Assembly: GCA_038145135.1 (NCBI GenBank)
Contig: JAYQPD010000004.1
Coordinates: 1 to 46,717 of the forward strand
Reading direction: 5' to 3'
DNA: 46,717 nt
Source of the DNA: a bacterium
Lineage (GTDB): Bacteria > Patescibacteriota > Minisyncoccia > Phycocordibacterales > UBA918
The notes beneath the pieces were generated by a model that saw nothing but the letters and a program-made list of their open reading frames with translations, ran no database searches and was not told where the DNA came from. Position 1 is the first letter of the stretch. Each line of letters opens with the position of its first letter. The position numbers and the translations under genes were made by a program. This document shows positions 1 to 10,900 of this stretch, one piece after another.

Positions 1-228
1 CTGCGCAGCAAGAAAAGTGGCGACAAGGTATACCGGCTTCTGTAAGAAGTTTCGTTTAAATATTGTGCTGGGAGCACATTGGAAAACGAAAAACGACCTT
101 GCCTGCCATCTTTTCTGCGCAGCAAGAAAAGTGGCGACAAGGTGTACTGCTCCTGTAAGGAGTTGAGTTAATATGCTGGGAGCATATTAAAAACGAAAAA
201 CGACCTTGCCTGATATTTCTTGAGGAAC
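1..228 (+). repeat. Two tandem ~114-nt noncoding repeat units (1-114, 115-228); the array is cut by the left window edge
   Basis: An identical 29-nt head, ctgcgcagcaagaaaagtggcgacaaggt, sits at 1 and 115. Both units share the 3' core ..gctgggagca.att..aaaacgaaaaacgaccttgcctg (58-105 and 169-212). Stop codons close all three + frames within 166 nt. Confidence 0.9.
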
Positions 229-493
229 GAAAAGAAATATCGACAAGGCTGAAATGCGGAGCATTTCAGAAGGTTGTCGACAGATTCGACCAAAGGGAGA
301 ATATGTCAAACAACCTGAACAGAATCCGTAAGCAAGCTTCCTGAAACTTCATTCGCATGTTGTGTAAATATATTTCCACACATACTCACTCGTTTCAGTA
401 GGATTTACTGCTTCTGTAAGCAGAGCTTGCTGAAACGGCGCTCGCACTTTATAGAAAAGTGAACTTTTCTATAAGAGCTCTCTTGTTTCAGAA
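229..493 (+). other. Hairpin-dense noncoding segment between repeat copies
   Basis: Stems read directly from the sequence: 212-241 (gatatttctt/aagaaatatc, 10 bp); 241-279 (cgacaa/ttgtcg enclosing ctgaaatgc-gga-gcatttcag); gcaagct 332-338 with agcttgc 424-430; ctgaaac 341-347 with gtttcag 392-398; ctgaaac 430-436 with gtttcag 485-491; 449-474 (ttatagaaaag/cttttctataa, 11 bp). Confidence 0.7.
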
Positions 494-561
494 AGAAGGT
501 TTCGTTTAAATATTGTGCTGGGAGCATATTAAAAACGAAAAACGACCTTACCTGATATTTC
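494..561 (+). repeat. Third (partial) copy of the repeat 3' core
   Basis: agaaggtttcgtttaaatattgtgctgggagcatattaaaaacgaaaaacgaccttacctgatatttc closely matches 45-105 and 169-220. Confidence 0.9.
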
Positions 562-663
562 AAACATATCACGCAACAAAGTTGGCTGAACCTTTCTTGT
601 ACTATACCCATATCTTTCATACTACTTACACTACCTCTTGCTATACTTACCTATATAGATCGT

Positions 664-1680
664 ATGAAGTGGCACTCACTTTTCTTTGCGCTGTGCTTTC
701 TGGTGTTTTTGTTGCCGCATACAAGCGAAGCTGCGACTCTGTACATGGATCCGACCGAGACCCATGCCTACCGTGCGGATACGTTCAGCGTTGAGGTGCG
801 TGTCGATACCGATGAGGATGAGTGTATCAATGCGGCTGATGCGGTCATTACCTATGACCCTTCCATAGCCGCCGCTGATGTGTCGCTTGGAGATTCGATC
901 TTCACGCTCTGGGTAGAACGTCCGACGATAGATCAAGAGAAACACACGATAACGTTTGCTGGAGGTATTCCAAATGGTTACTGTGGTCGTATACCAGGCG
1001 ATCCTCGTCTTACGAATGTGATCGCGAAGATCATCTTTAGGGTACCTGGATTCTCTGTTGGTTCTGGAAGTACGAACGGTATCGCAAATATCTCTTTCGA
1101 TCCACAGACCCACGTATACCTCAATAGTGGTGATGGGAGTATGGCGCCACTACGGACCTTCGGCACTACAGTGCATGTCGATCAGAAGGCAGGAAGTTCC
1201 ATAAGCGATGAGTGGCGTACCGAGGTATCTAACGACGATGCGCCGCCAAGTCCATTCTCGATCGAACTCGTCCAAAACGACTCCGTCTTCAGCGGTAGAC
1301 ACTATATAGTCTTTTCAACGACCGATAAGCAATCTGGTCTCGATCACTACGAAGTGTTCGAAGAGCCACTTGATGAGATATCGCTCTTTAGATGGGGCGA
1401 GCCTGATGCCGTTTGGGAGCGTGCAGAAAGTCCGTACGTACTGAACGACCAACGGTTACGGAGTGTCATTCGGGTGAAGGCGATCGATAAAGCGGGCAAT
1501 GAACAGATCGCGATCTACGCTCCAGAAGAGGCAGCTCGCGTCATAGATCCACTCACCGCAGTGCTCGCACTATCAATCGGCGTGCTCGTTCTTGTACTTA
1601 TTGTGGTCTTCGGGCTCTTTATGAGACGCCGATTCATTACTCGTCACACACATGAAGAAGATCATGTTGAATCTGAATAG
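664..1680 (+). CDS. Membrane-anchored surface protein with an N-terminal cohesin-like domain
   Basis: Signal peptide MKWHSLFFALCFLVFLLPHTSEA. Cohesin-like pattern TLYMDP..FSVEVRVDT..INAADAVITYDP..LWVERP..ITFAGGIPNGY. Ig-like module ending VKAIDKAGNE. C-terminal TM helix LTAVLALSIGVLVLVLIVVFGLF followed by RRRF. TATATA lies 6 nt upstream of the ATG. Confidence 0.8.
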   Translation: MKWHSLFFALCFLVFLLPHTSEAATLYMDPTETHAYRADTFSVEVRVDTDEDECINAADAVITYDPSIAAADVSLGDSIFTLWVERPTIDQEKHTITFAGGIPNGYCGRIPGDPRLTNVIAKIIFRVPGFSVGSGSTNGIANISFDPQTHVYLNSGDGSMAPLRTFGTTVHVDQKAGSSISDEWRTEVSNDDAPPSPFSIELVQNDSVFSGRHYIVFSTTDKQSGLDHYEVFEEPLDEISLFRWGEPDAVWERAESPYVLNDQRLRSVIRVKAIDKAGNEQIAIYAPEEAARVIDPLTAVLALSIGVLVLVLIVVFGLFMRRRFITRHTHEEDHVESE

Positions 1681-3412
1681 CTACATTCAGCACACCTTGC
1701 TGAGTCGATGTATTGTTCTCTGTGTAGTGCTGAGTGGTGTGTTCCTGTATGCACAAGCTGCGTCTGCGGCAACACTCTCACTCACTCCACCGACCGGTGT
1801 GTATTCTGTGGGAGGCACGTTCTCAGCGCGTGTCGTTGTGAATACTGGAGGAAAGCCGATCAATGCTGCTGAAGGTGAACTGACCTACAATCCAAAAGAA
1901 CTCCAAGTGGTTGGTGTCTCGAAAGGTGGATCCATCTTCAGTCTCTGGACCATTGAACCAAAATATTCTGGAGGGAAGATCTCCTTTGGTGGCGGATCTC
2001 CCTCCGGATATACCGGTTCGAATGGAACTGTGGTATCTATCACGTTTCGCGCGCTCGGAGCAGGTACCCCTAAGGTGAACTTCACCTCAGGATCAGTGCT
2101 TGCCGCTGATGGGCAGGGAACGAACGTTCTCTCCTCGATGCAAGGAGGTACGTATACTGTAAATGCAGCAACAGCAGTACCTGAACCAGAATACATAGCG
2201 CCGGCAAATACACCGGGCATGCCTGATATTACTTCTTCAACGCATCCCGATCCTGACGCGTGGTACACCAACACGACCGCAAAACTCTCGTGGGGGTTGC
2301 CGTCTGGAGTGACCGCAGTTCGCATGCTCCTTGATGAGAGTCGTGGCACCATACCGACAAATGTCTATGAACCACCGATCCGAGAGAAAGAACTCACAGA
2401 ACTCGAGGGTGTTTCGTACTTCCATCTTCAGTTCAAGAATGCTGATGGTTGGGGCAAGGTTGCTCACTATCGCCTCGCTGTTGATGCTGTGCGCCCAGAG
2501 TCCTTTGATATCACGCTCGAATCAGGTGATGAAACCAACCCGAAGCAGCGTCTTATATTCAACGCGAAAGATGCCGGCTCCGGAGTGGCGTACTACATGG
2601 TGCAGATCGACGGCGGTGAACGTGCCAAATGGGTAGATGAACAGAAGGATGGTGTCTACGAACTTCCACTCCTTGATCCAGGTGATCACACGGTGGTTGT
2701 TGAGGCGATCGATCATGCGGGCAACGGACTCGTCGCATCGATCAGCTTTACGGTAGAAGCGTTCGAAGCGCCCGTATTCACTGACTACCCAAGTGAGATC
2801 AGTGAGCGCATCATTCCAGTCGTGAAAGGAACTACGCGGCCGCGTGCGCATGTGTTTGTGTCGCTCCATAAGCGCGGAGCTGGAGAAGACGAGGTTATGG
2901 CCATTGAGCGGGAGGTGACGGCAAACGATAACGGAGAGTTCACCTTCGTTGCAGATGGCCGCCTCGCCATTGGGTCCTATGAGGTAACGGCACGTGCAGT
3001 TGATGAACAAGGTGCGCAGAGCTTGCTGAGCGACCCAATCTCTATCGCAGTACAGGAATCGGTCATTAAGTCAGCAGGAGCTACACTTATTACCATACTC
3101 TCAGTCACCGTGCCGCTCGTCGCACTCATCGTACTTCTCATTCTTCTCGTCCTCTACGGGCGCAACCGCATCCGGTCACTCCGCTCACGTGTCATAAAAG
3201 AGACACTTGAAGCCGAGCGATCAGTATCGCTTGAGATCGGTGGAGTGATAGACGATATCAATGAGCGCATCGAAGCACTGGGTGTTGGGCGAAAAGGTAA
3301 GATCACTAAATCAGAGATCGCGCTCCTCGATGCCATCCAAAAAGAGATCGTGGAGGTTCGTAACCGTGTGGAGAAAGAAGTTAAGGATATTGAGCGCGCA
3401 GCAAAGAGCTAG
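1652..3412 (+). CDS. Membrane-anchored surface protein with a cohesin-like domain, Ig-like modules and a cytoplasmic coiled-coil tail
   Basis: Signal/anchor CIVLCVVLSGVFLYAQAASA. Cohesin-like TLSLTPPTGVYSVGGTFSARVVVNTGGKPINAAEGELTYNPKELQVV..LWTIEP..ISFGGGSPSGY. Ig-like modules (..VVVEAIDHAGNG.., ..YEVTARAVDEQGA..). TM helix LITILSVTVPLVALIVLLILLVLY. Charged helical tail. It overlaps the previous CDS by 29 nt; an alternative ATG lies at 1664. Confidence 0.8.
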   Translation: MKKIMLNLNSYIQHTLLSRCIVLCVVLSGVFLYAQAASAATLSLTPPTGVYSVGGTFSARVVVNTGGKPINAAEGELTYNPKELQVVGVSKGGSIFSLWTIEPKYSGGKISFGGGSPSGYTGSNGTVVSITFRALGAGTPKVNFTSGSVLAADGQGTNVLSSMQGGTYTVNAATAVPEPEYIAPANTPGMPDITSSTHPDPDAWYTNTTAKLSWGLPSGVTAVRMLLDESRGTIPTNVYEPPIREKELTELEGVSYFHLQFKNADGWGKVAHYRLAVDAVRPESFDITLESGDETNPKQRLIFNAKDAGSGVAYYMVQIDGGERAKWVDEQKDGVYELPLLDPGDHTVVVEAIDHAGNGLVASISFTVEAFEAPVFTDYPSEISERIIPVVKGTTRPRAHVFVSLHKRGAGEDEVMAIEREVTANDNGEFTFVADGRLAIGSYEVTARAVDEQGAQSLLSDPISIAVQESVIKSAGATLITILSVTVPLVALIVLLILLVLYGRNRIRSLRSRVIKETLEAERSVSLEIGGVIDDINERIEALGVGRKGKITKSEIALLDAIQKEIVEVRNRVEKEVKDIERAAKS

Positions 3413-3470: not shown

Positions 3471-4136
3471 ATGCCACTCGCCCCACAAGCTCGACAGATA
3501 CTCATAGCGGCCGGTATAGGCGCGCTTATCACACTCGTACTTGCCTCAGGGTATATTGCACATCGCCTGAGTCAGTACAAGCTCTACACTGAGAGTATGC
3601 TCGAGAATATAGCTGGGAGCTACCTCAAAGCGGCAGTGAGCGCTGACAGGACCGAGGTAACTGAGCAAAGCCAAGAAGCTGTGTCTGACTGTGCTTCGAG
3701 AGGCACGTTTGACGAATTGCTCTCGCGCCTCCAATCGCTTAGCGCGAGCGAGCGAAAAGAGCTCGATGTACTTTTTCCTCAATGCGCCGACTACTATTAT
3801 CGGCTCAAGCTGTTCCACATCGACCACCTCAATACGTTGCTTCGTGAGTACACACTTACCCTTGAGCATCGAGATCATATCTACGCAGAAGATGATCATT
3901 TTGCAGAAGTACGAAGAGACATGGAGGCGATTATACGTGGCGAAGAGGAACGAAAGACTGCGATGCAAGAACAGATCTCAGTGCAACGAGATATCATTGA
4001 AGCTATGAAACAGGGAAGTATGGACGACCCCGCGCTTACCGATCGCATCGGAGTGGTTAGTGCAGAGCTTGGTACTGCAGATGCTGCAGTCGATAGTGCA
4101 CGAGCACAGCTTTCGAAAGCACTCGAGGGAGAGTAA
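3471..4136 (+). CDS. Hypothetical N-terminally anchored helical/coiled-coil protein
   Basis: 221-aa ORF with one N-terminal TM helix (ILIAAGIGALITLVLASGYIA), then charged helical sequence. TATAGT lies 5 nt upstream of the ATG. No family recognised. Confidence 0.6.
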   Translation: MPLAPQARQILIAAGIGALITLVLASGYIAHRLSQYKLYTESMLENIAGSYLKAAVSADRTEVTEQSQEAVSDCASRGTFDELLSRLQSLSASERKELDVLFPQCADYYYRLKLFHIDHLNTLLREYTLTLEHRDHIYAEDDHFAEVRRDMEAIIRGEEERKTAMQEQISVQRDIIEAMKQGSMDDPALTDRIGVVSAELGTADAAVDSARAQLSKALEGE

Positions 4137-7983: not shown

Positions 7984-10900
7984 ATGCGAAAGATATATAG
8001 TTTCGCGCGCTTTTTTGTGTCACTTACTGTGATGAGTGTACTGGTATTTTGGAATGTGTTCTCAGTACCATTTTCACCACTTCCATTTGGCCCGAAGGTT
8101 GCAGAGGCAGCACAGGCAAGTATTGATACAACGGCAAACTCGAATGGGAGTATGCAACTGCATGCAGGTCCACAGACGGTGTTCACGAGTGATCAGACTG
8201 GTTATAAATTCTATGTGGACTCTGGCGGTGATTGTGTGTACTCAAAGACGACCAACGGCGGTACTTCGTGGAATACTCCGGTCCAGATCGACTCACAGAC
8301 AGACTGTATCGGGATTGCGGTATGGTATGACAAGTGGACACCGAACGACACTGGGACAACGATCCATATTGCTACGATCGACTCATCAAGTAACAATGAC
8401 AACATCTTTTATAACGCACTCGATACCACGACCGATACACGACTTACCGGTGCGGCTGCGATCAATACCGACCCAGGCAACGTGCAGACCTACACGCTTG
8501 TAGCTGGCGCGAACTATCCTTCGATCACCAAAGCGACCAATGGAACACTCTATGTATCAGTCGATGACCGTACTGACTCAGCGGTGCTCCGCTGCTCTAC
8601 CACGTGTGGTACGGGAACCAACTGGACTGAAGCAGGAACGAGTCCTCAGGATGCACAAAACGACTTCTCAATACTTGTCCCATTGGTGAGTGGTAACGTG
8701 ATGATCATCAATCGTGACATTTCTGCGGGTGTGATCCGCTCAAAGATCTGGTACAACTCGATCAGTGCGTGGACAACAGCGTGGACCACTATCGATGCTG
8801 CGGCGACCGATAACGGCACGTATCCAGTCGGTCTTTCAGCCACTATCTCAACTTCAACTTCAGCTGCAACGAGTACAGTGTATTTGGCCTACACTGCTGA
8901 TAACACAACGCTGGGCACCGATGACGATGTGCGCGTCGGCGTGTATTCGAATTCCTCGTGGTCTACGGTAACACCGGTCCTTAATGACGCCAAAGGCATC
9001 ACCAGCGCTTCTATCGGACGTGACGAGAATTCAGGATCGATCTATCTCGCATATACTGCGCGCACAACGCCCGGTACCGCGAGTACGGGTAACGTGTACT
9101 GGAAGGTGAGTACCTCATCTATCAGTTCTTGGTCTGCTGAGCAGGGCCCGATCAATACTTCGTCAAACGACATGTATGGTGTTGATCTCAATGCACGTAA
9201 CAACCACCGCATTTACGCAACATGGTATGGAAGCACCGGAGCCACGGTGTTTGGTAATACGGTCGCAGACTTGACCTACGGCGTCATGGTATCGACGACC
9301 AAGTCACAAAATACCGAGGTGAGCGCCCCAAAGACCAACTACTACATCGGCGGTGTGTTCTCACTTCAGGAGCAAGTGAGTTCGCGCAACGTAACTGGTA
9401 TTACGATCGGAGAGAATGGGACCATCAACGGTACCTCAAGTGTTGCCAATATCAAGCTCTACTATGAAATGGACAACACCTATCCGTATGATTGTGCGAG
9501 TGTGCAGTATGATGGGGGCGGTGCAGAGTCCCAGTTTGGTGGTACCGATGCCAATGGATTCTCTGGAGCAGACGGCATCTCGTCATTCACCGGCTCGAGC
9601 GTGACCGTCTCGACCACGAGTGCTATGTGTGTATATGTGGTCATGGATATTTTGGACGCTGCGGTTGATGGTGCGACTCTCAATGTCTATGTGCCAACAC
9701 CATCGACCGGTGTAACCGTTACTGATGGTGGTGAAGTGACCCCAACTACAGACCTCGATATGAGTAGCTTTACCACGGTACGAAATGACTACCTGGTACA
9801 GACTGGTTACCACTGGAGGAATGACGACAACACTGAACTCCTTGCAACATCAAAGACCGGTGGCATTGAGAACACTGCGCTTTCTGCGCTTCAACAGGGA
9901 AGTCAGGCACGTCTTCGTGTTCAAATATCGAACACAGGTGGCACCACCTCGCCCTCATCACAGTTTCGCCTTGAATACAGTCGCGCGACCACTACCTGCA
10001 GCGCTGCCTACCTCTGGACCGATGTTGGTTCCACCACTGACGATTGGGATATGTATGATTCGATCCATCTCACCGACAACGACAGCACGAATGATATTGG
10101 AACTTCAACCGGTGGCGTTACGAATCCTATTGGAAAGACATTCCTCACCACTAACTATGGCGTGAAAGATGCCTCATCGACGGCAACTGCGGTGACGCTA
10201 ACCTCAAGTCAGTACACTGAGCTTGAATACTCGGTGGTCCCAACCGCATTCGCAACCGAAGGTAACACGTACTGTTTCCGCGTAACGAACGCCGGCACCA
10301 CACTGCAAAGCTACTCACAGTACCCCCGTGCCACCATCTCTGCTGACGTTAACGTGAGCGCGACCGGTACTGCGGCAACCTCAAAAGATATTCCGACCTC
10401 GAATGTGTACTTTGGAGGAGCGTACGTTATTAAAGAGAATACTTCCTCGCGTAGTGTGACCTCGATCACACTCACAGAGAACGGTACTGTCGATGCCCAA
10501 AACGACTTAAGCAACATCAGGATCAAATACGATCTCGACACCTCAAACCCTTACGATTGTGGATCAGAGTCGTATAGTGGCAGTGAGCTGCAGTATGGTG
10601 CTACGAGTAGCAGTTTCTCCAGTGCAAACGGTACATCCACCTTTACGGGCTCGGTCAGCATTACCACGACACAAACACTCTGTCTCTATGTGGTAGCTGA
10701 TATCAATGAGACTGCTAATAATGGTGATACGGTCAACATAGTCGTTAACAATCCATCGAATGATGTTGTGGTAAGTGGTGGCGGGTCAGTCTCGCCGTCG
10801 GCAACTCAGGACATCACGGGGTCAACAACCCTTGCCGGTGCTATCCTCTCGCAGACGCACTACCATTGGAGAAACAACGACGGTGGCGAATCGACCTCGA

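Follow-up and report, generated by a model that had tools for sequence, protein, structure and literature searches.

A tandem locus of an uncatalogued structured RNA family in Patescibacteria

Introduction

What is the noncoding, hairpin-rich element that occupies the first 569 nucleotides (nt) of contig JAYQPD010000004.1 (GenBank assembly GCA_038145135.1), directly upstream of an operon for surface proteins? The stretch analysed here, called the window throughout, comprises positions 1–46,717 of the forward (+) strand of this contig and is chromosomal DNA of the Patescibacteria (candidate phyla radiation, CPR), which account for a sizeable part of bacterial diversity and are, for the most part, uncultured organisms with tiny genomes. 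To our knowledge very few noncoding RNAs (ncRNAs) of Patescibacteria have been described. Comparison across genomes identifies window 1–569 as a tandem locus of a structured RNA family, with one full copy, at least two abridged copies and one terminal partial copy, and shows the conserved element to be one that folds at the level of RNA and has invariant loops and junctions. We favour, with moderate confidence, the joint reading that this is a locus of an uncatalogued Patescibacteria RNA family encoded on the + strand, whose product is a putative stable trans-acting RNA with a protein partner; that the RNA is stable, acts in trans and binds protein is our best guess as to its nature.

Results

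Recovery of the family from other genomes

Loci were fetched around homologues of the cohesin-like gene that lies downstream of the array, and two of them (L011 and L016; the loci compared carry L numbers) hold related modules at the same site as the window, one segment being nearly identical to window 241–335. A gapped pattern derived from this segment retrieved five further members and six chance hits from a genome collection, the members coming from metagenome-assembled genomes (MAGs) labelled Kaiserbacteria, Zambryskiibacteriota, Saccharibacteria (two) and Patescibacteria group. An independent pattern consisting only of the two CUGUAAG hairpins returned 12 true members and two chance hits from a metagenome collection. 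On inspection the chance hits proved to be GC-rich or coding in the genome set (L019, L020, L022, L023, L024 and L026) and to lie in coding repeats in the metagenome set (L030 and L033). The pattern for the genome set fixed P4 and AAGGYU, that for the metagenome set the UGUAA loops; each set leaves free the positions fixed in the other, and these are still conserved. A covariance model, R1, built from 12 other genomes finds 20 distinct loci in Patescibacteria MAGs and metagenomes at 56–174 bits, and matches the window at 165–426 on the + strand with 115.8 bits (E about 1e-30) over all model positions, 1–183. An initial annotation of this DNA, made from the sequence of the window, had proposed an unclassified structured RNA family on the + strand selected for pairing, and had looked to such a model and to related genomes for its confirmation; that core reading is supported.

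The exact 22-nt window pattern AAAACGAAAAACGACCTTNCCTG matched nothing in either collection, of genomes or of metagenomes. In viral contigs an 18-mer matched coding sequence by chance only and the family core pattern not at all, and a blastn comparison of window 1–663 with phages and plasmids gave no match; a phage or plasmid element was rejected as an explanation.

Consensus structure and covariation

The family unit is about 180 nt long (range about 160–200 nt) and forms a string of hairpins (H1–H6) with helices P2 and P4 enclosing H2 and H4. Its 5′ part runs from a GGUGAGA-like start through H1 (UGGGR loop), a GCAAGA linker, P2 (CCUUGnn/nnCAAGG) around H2, and H3 to an AGA linker, while its 3′ part comprises P4 (AGGUUGU/ACAACCU) around CGA-H4-UCAU, the junction GAAC, and the two short hairpins H5 and H6, each with a near-invariant UGUAA pentaloop closed by a C-G pair and joined to the other by UAC. 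The P2 helix varies across units and genomes as ACCUUG/CAAGGU, ACCCUG/CAGGGU, ACCGUG/CACGGU, CCGUUG/CAACGG and CCUUUUG/CAAAAGG. H1 and H4, which are left unstructured in the model, fold as hairpins from unrelated sequences in most members. A further helix closing the 5′ end on the 3′ tail, apparent in L025 and in L029, a compact member of 163 nt, was rejected, since 16 of 18 members lack a significant 5′/3′ duplex.

Applied to a plain MAFFT alignment (12 members), RNAalifold predicts 37 pairs, and 21 of these show compensatory changes. In the model alignment of 19 sequences 95.2% of cells form a standard pair, as against 31–49% in controls whose pairing partners were slid by 1–3 columns, and 26 of the 37 pairs have changed on both sides, as against 1–8 in the slid controls; none of 500 shuffles attained the observed value. 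Selection on pairing, which had been argued from base changes among the copies in the window, is thereby borne out: covariation among three copies of a single genome counts for little, and it is the other genomes that supply the strong evidence.

Comparison with the 4227 covariance models of Rfam 15 agrees with the earlier remark that the region fits no known ncRNA class. Window 1–1000 gave three chance-level hits (15–17 bits) at E up to 10, in five member loci no hit with E up to 1 fell on the element, and L027 and L028, run as isolated members with E up to 10, returned nothing beyond noise resembling miRNAs or terminators. Nor did literature searches on CPR/Patescibacteria ncRNA, 6S RNA and the UGUAA pentaloop, or Breaker/Weinberg discovery papers, yield a description of this RNA.

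Architecture of the window locus

The listing of open reading frames (ORFs) contains no credible ORF in window 1–663, and a scan of the region for tRNA and tmRNA found none. The locus folds at −198 kcal/mol on the + strand (z −6.5 against shuffles) and at −219 kcal/mol on the − strand (z −14), in keeping with the first impression of a noncoding region that is almost wholly foldable; both strands are far more stable than shuffles, and folding energy alone therefore cannot choose the strand. A repeat finder shows window 1–33 and 115–147 to be 97% identical at a spacing of 114 nt, confirms repeat copies at spacings of 114, 107–108 and 342 nt, and places the module GUGCUGGGAGCA...AAAACGAAAAACGACCUUGCC at 49–114, 157–221 and 499–563. 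The 21-mer core AAAACGAAAAACGACCTTGCC occurs three times (0 expected) and the 19-mer core AAGAAAAGTGGCGACAAGG twice (0.02 expected). Tandem Repeats Finder did not detect the array in the window because the copies differ by indels. The 114-nt tandem units of the initial annotation thus stand as to spacing and copies, but they are abridged copies of a real unit of about 180 nt.

The full-length member at 165–426 begins with H1 (168–177/181–190, UGGGA loop) and an A-rich linker (191–203), followed by P2 (204–208/244–248) around H2 (212–221/232–241), H3 (249–257/261–269), P4 (271–277/310–316) around H4 (279–307), GAAC (317–320), H5 (323–327/401–405, with an expanded loop), UAC, and H6 (408–411/420–423) with its UGUAA at 415–419. 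An unconstrained minimum free energy (MFE) fold of window 165–500 recovers H1, P2/H2, H3 and P4/H4. Relative to the model the copy has two non-canonical pairs in H6 and a 71-nt insertion in H5.

That insertion corresponds to the first of two lineage-specific expansions on the + strand. At 328–400, at the site of the H5 loop, lies a hairpin CUGAAAC (341–347)/GUUUCAG (392–398), and at 424–498 a hairpin CUGAAAC (430–436)/GUUUCAG (485–491) with an inner stem (449–460/463–474) is followed by GAAG (493–496). The two can pair locally, in which case they expand the loops of H5 and H6, or with each other as nested helices (341–347:485–491 and 392–398:430–436), and we retain both readings; the nested fold is favoured by MFE (−50.2 versus −36.1 kcal/mol), and clean insertions into the two loops were therefore dropped as the sole reading. 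The nested ctgaaac/gtttcag helices described earlier are one of these two readings, and the ‘spacer’ to which they had been assigned (243–426) is the best-conserved part of the family. The segments 328–400 and 424–492 are themselves paralogous hairpins of about 70 nt, each following (C/U)GUAAGCA and together adding about 150 nt of extra sequence, and no homologue of them was seen in the relatives.

An abridged unit, matched with filters off at 65–174 on the + strand (27.8 bits, E 4e-8), passes from H1 to P2 (ACCUUG 96–101/CAAGGU 138–143) around H2 (104–136, loop GCGCAGCA), GUAC and the hairpin CUCC-UGUAA-GGAG (150–162); it lacks H3, P4/H4 and H5, whose model positions are deleted in the alignment. 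Its H1, copy 1 of this hairpin on the + strand, spans 49–95 by repeat comparison, with a core stem at 64–69/73–78 around GGG (70–72) and outer arms GUUUCGUUU (49–57) and AAAACGAAAAAC (83–94) that extend it, and a similarly extended H1 is present at L011 2036–2080 and L045 1883–1927. The window edge cuts a further + strand unit of this kind, of which the 3′ part remains at 1–49: 1–33 is the segment repeated at 115–147 and the model aligns 34–49 as H6, and its letters can be read as the H2 loop and 3′ arm (1–21), the 3′ strand of P2 (CAAGG, 24–28), GUAUAC and the hairpin CUUC-UGUAA-GAAG (37–49). By analogy with L045, only about 100–150 nt of the array should lie to the left of the edge, predicted to hold one further H1 and the 5′ half of a P2 and to be bordered by terminators and a gene of about 380 aa. 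At the other end a terminal partial unit (499–569, + strand) comprises an extended H1 with its core at 514–519/523–528, AAAACGAAAAAC, ACCUUA (546–551) and the hairpin GAUAU/AUAUC (553–557/565–569); it is 86–90% identical to copies 1 and 2, scores alone under the model threshold, and resembles the A-rich stretch and hairpin at L045 2213–2265.

The hairpins and base changes between copies that had been described earlier are all present at the coordinates given: the small stem reads cttc/gaag at 37–40/46–49 and ctcc/ggag at 150–153/159–162 around the same TGTAA loop, the GGG-loop stem carries G65–C77 in copy 1, A173–T185 in copy 2 and G515·T527 in copy 3, and CGACAAGG follows both cttttct/agaaaag (110–116/125–131) and gatatttctt/aagaaatatc (212–221/232–241). 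The proposed pairing of CAAGG with a later ACCUUG around two hairpins fell, since the helix found across genomes joins ACCUUG to a downstream CAAGG and encloses the single hairpin H2.

Tandem arrays in relatives

Abridged and full units occur together at the same site as in the window in L045, L011 and L016, and weakly in L043, and the abridged architecture recurs with compensatory P2 changes in L011, L039 and L045. The complete intergenic region is available in L045, where the protein of the neighbouring gene is 65% identical; here, behind two terminators of the upstream 381-aa gene, come two abridged units, each preceded by an H1, next the H3-P4/H4-H5 core, and last an A-rich stretch with a hairpin after it. 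In L011 two arrays, 1.7 kb apart, flank the upstream gene pair, and in L039 a short unit lies about 135 nt 3′ of the full copy. A diverged second copy in L035 (930–1077, + strand, 38 bits), on the strand opposite to the main copy (3793–3998), keeps P4/H4 and one UGUAA hairpin with a G-C closing pair, so that paralogues exist in some genomes.

Contigs assembled from short reads of this genome or its relatives terminate in or beside the element, L001 starting at about window 551 and L011, L012 and L013 inside it, in keeping with assembly breaks at repeats of the locus. Other repeats were seen at these sites: L016 carries at 9110–9290, in the stretch from the upstream 380-aa gene to the RNA, three terminator-like tandem units of about 63 nt ending ...ccccatctacacggaatcgggtttttcgttttttt, single units resembling this repeat are found in L010, L014 and L045, and the intergenic region of L014 (7810–8080) contains twice a different hairpin (gcgcagcgactattgcgaacttccgtccaagttttctcttttc...) that is unrelated to the RNA family.

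Genomic context and strand

Clear sense-strand terminators, each a GC-rich hairpin with a T-run, follow the RNA by 14–67 nt in L027, L028, L040, L041 and L042. The RNA lies on the same strand after the 23S-5S rRNA genes in L028 and after a tRNA gene in L025; it follows the genes for NusG and L11 in L040 and L041, FtsZ in L042, PolA in L027, and RNase Y and HU in L031, and directly precedes that for RNase HII (rnhB) in L034 (by Pfam) and L038 (read from its sequence). A glycosyltransferase-like gene and the surface operon complete the contexts seen near the RNA. The sense-strand terminators, and the orientation shared with an rRNA operon and with a tRNA gene, support the strand better than counts of G·U pairs can. 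In L040 and L041 the RNA stands directly after rplK (L11), in the usual place of rplA (L1), and the next gene is F420-ligase-like. Group I intron matches lie within the 23S rRNA gene of L028 (6288–7049, − strand), and a match to group II intron D1–D4 just after the 16S rRNA gene of L021 (985–1097).

In the window the array is separated from the ATG of the operon by about 95 nt and a promoter-like CTTGCTATACT (637–647), which is present in single copy there; a single match arose by chance in 38 of 100 shuffles. Motifs like it lie 7–17 nt 5′ of the start of the cohesin-like gene in the window, L012 (128–138), L014 (about 9985–9995) and L045 (2346–2355, TTGGTATACT), and another follows the terminator of the RNA in L027 (about 3115–3123). 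From its letters the motif might serve mRNAs with very short leaders as an extended −10 promoter.

The gene cluster 3′ of the array (window 664–30801) is conserved in L010–L017 and L043–L046. It encodes a cohesin-like protein of 338 aa, a Big_13/cohesin protein of 586 aa, a dockerin-like protein, an HTH_17 protein and two giants of 2093 and 3829 aa, and this order, checked through the first giant (a gene of about 2000 aa), is kept in relatives at 49–65% identity. The named homologues of the first gene bear Parcubacteria, Paceibacterota, Kaiserbacteria or Nomurabacteria labels, and the window also encodes UvrB, TGT, glutamate dehydrogenase and MgsA, these four on the + strand.

Discussion

Several points weigh against reading the family as a stable trans-acting RNA encoded on the + strand. 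Part of its sequence invariance is a product of retrieval with exact patterns, and the alignment behind the pair counts was fitted to model R1, although the plain MAFFT alignment gives the same picture of covariation. The last third of the window copy, towards its 3′ end, does not conform to the family: the H5 loop reads CCGUAAG, and the nested fold preferred by MFE disrupts H5. G·U cells outnumber A·C cells by 29 to 11, yet 18 of them come from one invariant pair, and the argument from wobble pairs on which the strand was initially assigned is therefore weak, the two kinds being equal at 11 each without that pair; the + strand has its support in the terminators and co-oriented genes. A scan of window 1–800 gave no promoter-like site and, on either strand, no terminator-like site, no conserved protein neighbour across the loci points to a partner, and for transcription and the ends of transcripts in this genome we rely on inference. 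In L027, L040, L041 and L042 the RNA starts where the preceding gene stops, at its stop codon or within it; given this start it may be co-transcribed with the upstream gene and processed, and may be an element of the 3′ untranslated region (UTR).

This overlap with stop codons leads to the main rival explanation, that of a cis-acting 3′ UTR or intergenic element which stabilises or insulates a highly expressed upstream mRNA, or provides a platform for processing or termination, with no function in trans. The upstream genes are indeed typically highly expressed, and in L045, L016 and L011 the terminator of the upstream gene contributes its U-tail as the 5′ arm of an extended H1, and it is there that the array begins. 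Simple stabilisers, however, have no need of near-invariant CUGUAAG, GAAC, UAC and AGAAGGUUGU across distant lineages, the upstream genes are mutually unrelated, and some members follow rRNA or tRNA genes or directly precede rnhB with no gene immediately upstream, so that we regard this explanation as unlikely, though it deserves more weight than the others considered here. A mere cluster of intrinsic terminators was rejected for window 1–800 on the scan just cited, and H1 has its U-rich arm 5′ of the hairpin and its A-rich arm 3′, where an intrinsic terminator has a GC-rich hairpin with a U-run after it.

The tandem partial copies in the window, the ends of relatives’ contigs in or near the element, the paired arrays of L011 and the second copy of L035 might instead suggest a selfish repeat of intergenic DNA, akin to repetitive extragenic palindromes (REP), bacterial interspersed mosaic elements (BIME) or miniature inverted-repeat transposable elements (MITE), whose pairing is kept for a transposase or as DNA hairpins. 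The many dispersed copies with target-site duplications by which the initial annotation would have recognised such a repeat are not found in the stretches covered: the 46.7-kb window has one locus and the other loci (about 300 kb) one full copy each, no terminal inverted repeats or target duplications flank the units, and no transposase domain occurs among the window ORFs and the neighbours scanned. Distant lineages share core sequence and module order across differing housekeeping contexts, a pattern not shown by selfish repeats, terminators follow the element on the sense strand, and internal repeats of the locus account for the contig breaks; a selfish origin is in our view highly improbable. 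We give equally little credence to a cis-regulatory leader, a riboswitch or attenuator of the downstream cohesin/dockerin operon. Its attraction is that in the window, L011, L016, L045 and L043 the element immediately precedes that operon, and that AAGG and CCUU segments could, judging from their letters, pair alternatively. A riboswitch or leader class was nevertheless rejected, as upstream and downstream genes differ among the loci and five members have clear terminators of their own; neighbouring genes that are unrelated from locus to locus thus speak against a leader of the surface-protein operon, as do the CTTGCTATACT and the distance that separate array and ATG, while in L010, L014 and L046 the operon is conserved and the element missing at this site. 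A CRISPR array was likewise rejected, the repeats being modules of 44–58 nt with 64–97% identity and homologous ‘spacers’, in which Tandem Repeats Finder sees no regular array.

A length of about 180 nt, an apparently single copy in most loci and housekeeping contexts with co-transcription alongside stable RNAs would all befit a highly diverged known housekeeping RNA such as 6S, or one unseen by current models. We think this improbable, if slightly less so than a leader or a selfish repeat, since isolated members match nothing in Rfam 15 even at E up to 10 and have neither a rod with a central bubble nor a conserved helix closing 5′ and 3′ ends. For 6S RNA itself, the consensus is a series of local helices without a 5′/3′ rod and there is no RF00013 hit, and it was rejected; so was the Alu domain of the signal recognition particle (SRP), as UGUAA lies here in hairpin loops with covarying closing stems, unlike the UGUNR junction of SRP Alu, and no SRP hit appeared in the Rfam scans.

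Under the reading of a trans-acting RNA that we prefer, the locus would be transcribed from the + strand, downstream of the preceding gene, as one transcript or in processed pieces, and the stable product would act in trans and not on the surface-protein operon. The twin UGUAA hairpins and the AAGG/CCUU helices would be its recognition surfaces, for a partner (most probably a protein, perhaps a dimer), and tandem short units in the window lineage would multiply binding sites in the manner of a sponge or scaffold. A more specific but unlikely version makes the RNA a subunit of an unrecognised housekeeping ribonucleoprotein, in which the twin UGUAA loops would form a paired T-loop-like platform for another RNA, such as a tRNA elbow, or for a dedicated dimeric protein. 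Such an RNA would be made with rRNA, tRNA and ribosomal-protein transcripts, its role in these reduced genomes would lie in translation or in the processing of RNA, and extra docking modules would be provided by the tandem short units. The pentanucleotide consensus of T-loops is U-(G/U)-N-R-A, with a U1·A5 reverse-Hoogsteen pair and an intercalated base in the folded loop; UGUAA and UGGGA match this consensus in sequence. The near-invariant core, the covariation and the neighbouring rRNA, tRNA and ribosomal-protein genes make the family a candidate for a core function specific to Patescibacteria. With its covariance model, defined helices and invariant loops it is a concrete object for experiment, and the amplification of short units in the window lineage offers a natural experiment on which modules matter.

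Among known systems, REP and BIME elements share with the family intergenic tandem imperfect palindromes that break assemblies, but they are dispersed in many copies, whereas here there is one locus per stretch analysed, all modules have one orientation and their order is conserved across distant lineages; among those neighbours that were scanned against Pfam, no REP-associated (RAYT-type) transposase was identified near the element. The CsrB/RsmZ sponges are likewise strings of short hairpins with repeated loop motifs, in which the number of modules varies by tandem duplication. Their loops carry GGA, however, while the invariant loops here are UGUAA, and P2 and P4 are conserved in sequence, as a sponge does not require; GGA or GGG is found in the H1 and H3 loops of some members only, those loops not being conserved family-wide, and the Rfam models for CsrB, RsmY and RsmZ gave no match. 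Two adjacent hairpins with the same loops and a short fixed linker, as in H5-UAC-H6, are also seen in the dual hairpins bound by ANTAR-type proteins and in the paired T-loops with which T-box stem I, RNase P and the L1 stalk dock tRNA elbows. The ANTAR loops differ in being hexaloops with other conserved bases and in overlapping a terminator, and a T-loop typically has two bulged nucleotides after it, absent from the 5-nt UGUAA loop. The orphan bacterial ncRNAs that came out of comparative genomics, such as raiA and the larger OLE, ROOL and GOLLD, which like this family had no known function at discovery, offer a further parallel. The present family is set apart from them by its lack of an Rfam 15 match, by its occurrence in the phylum Patescibacteria and by a string of hairpins with two enclosing helices in place of a closing helix, but it shares with them a conserved sequence with covarying helices, a noncoding nature, restriction to a lineage and, often, a terminator of its own.

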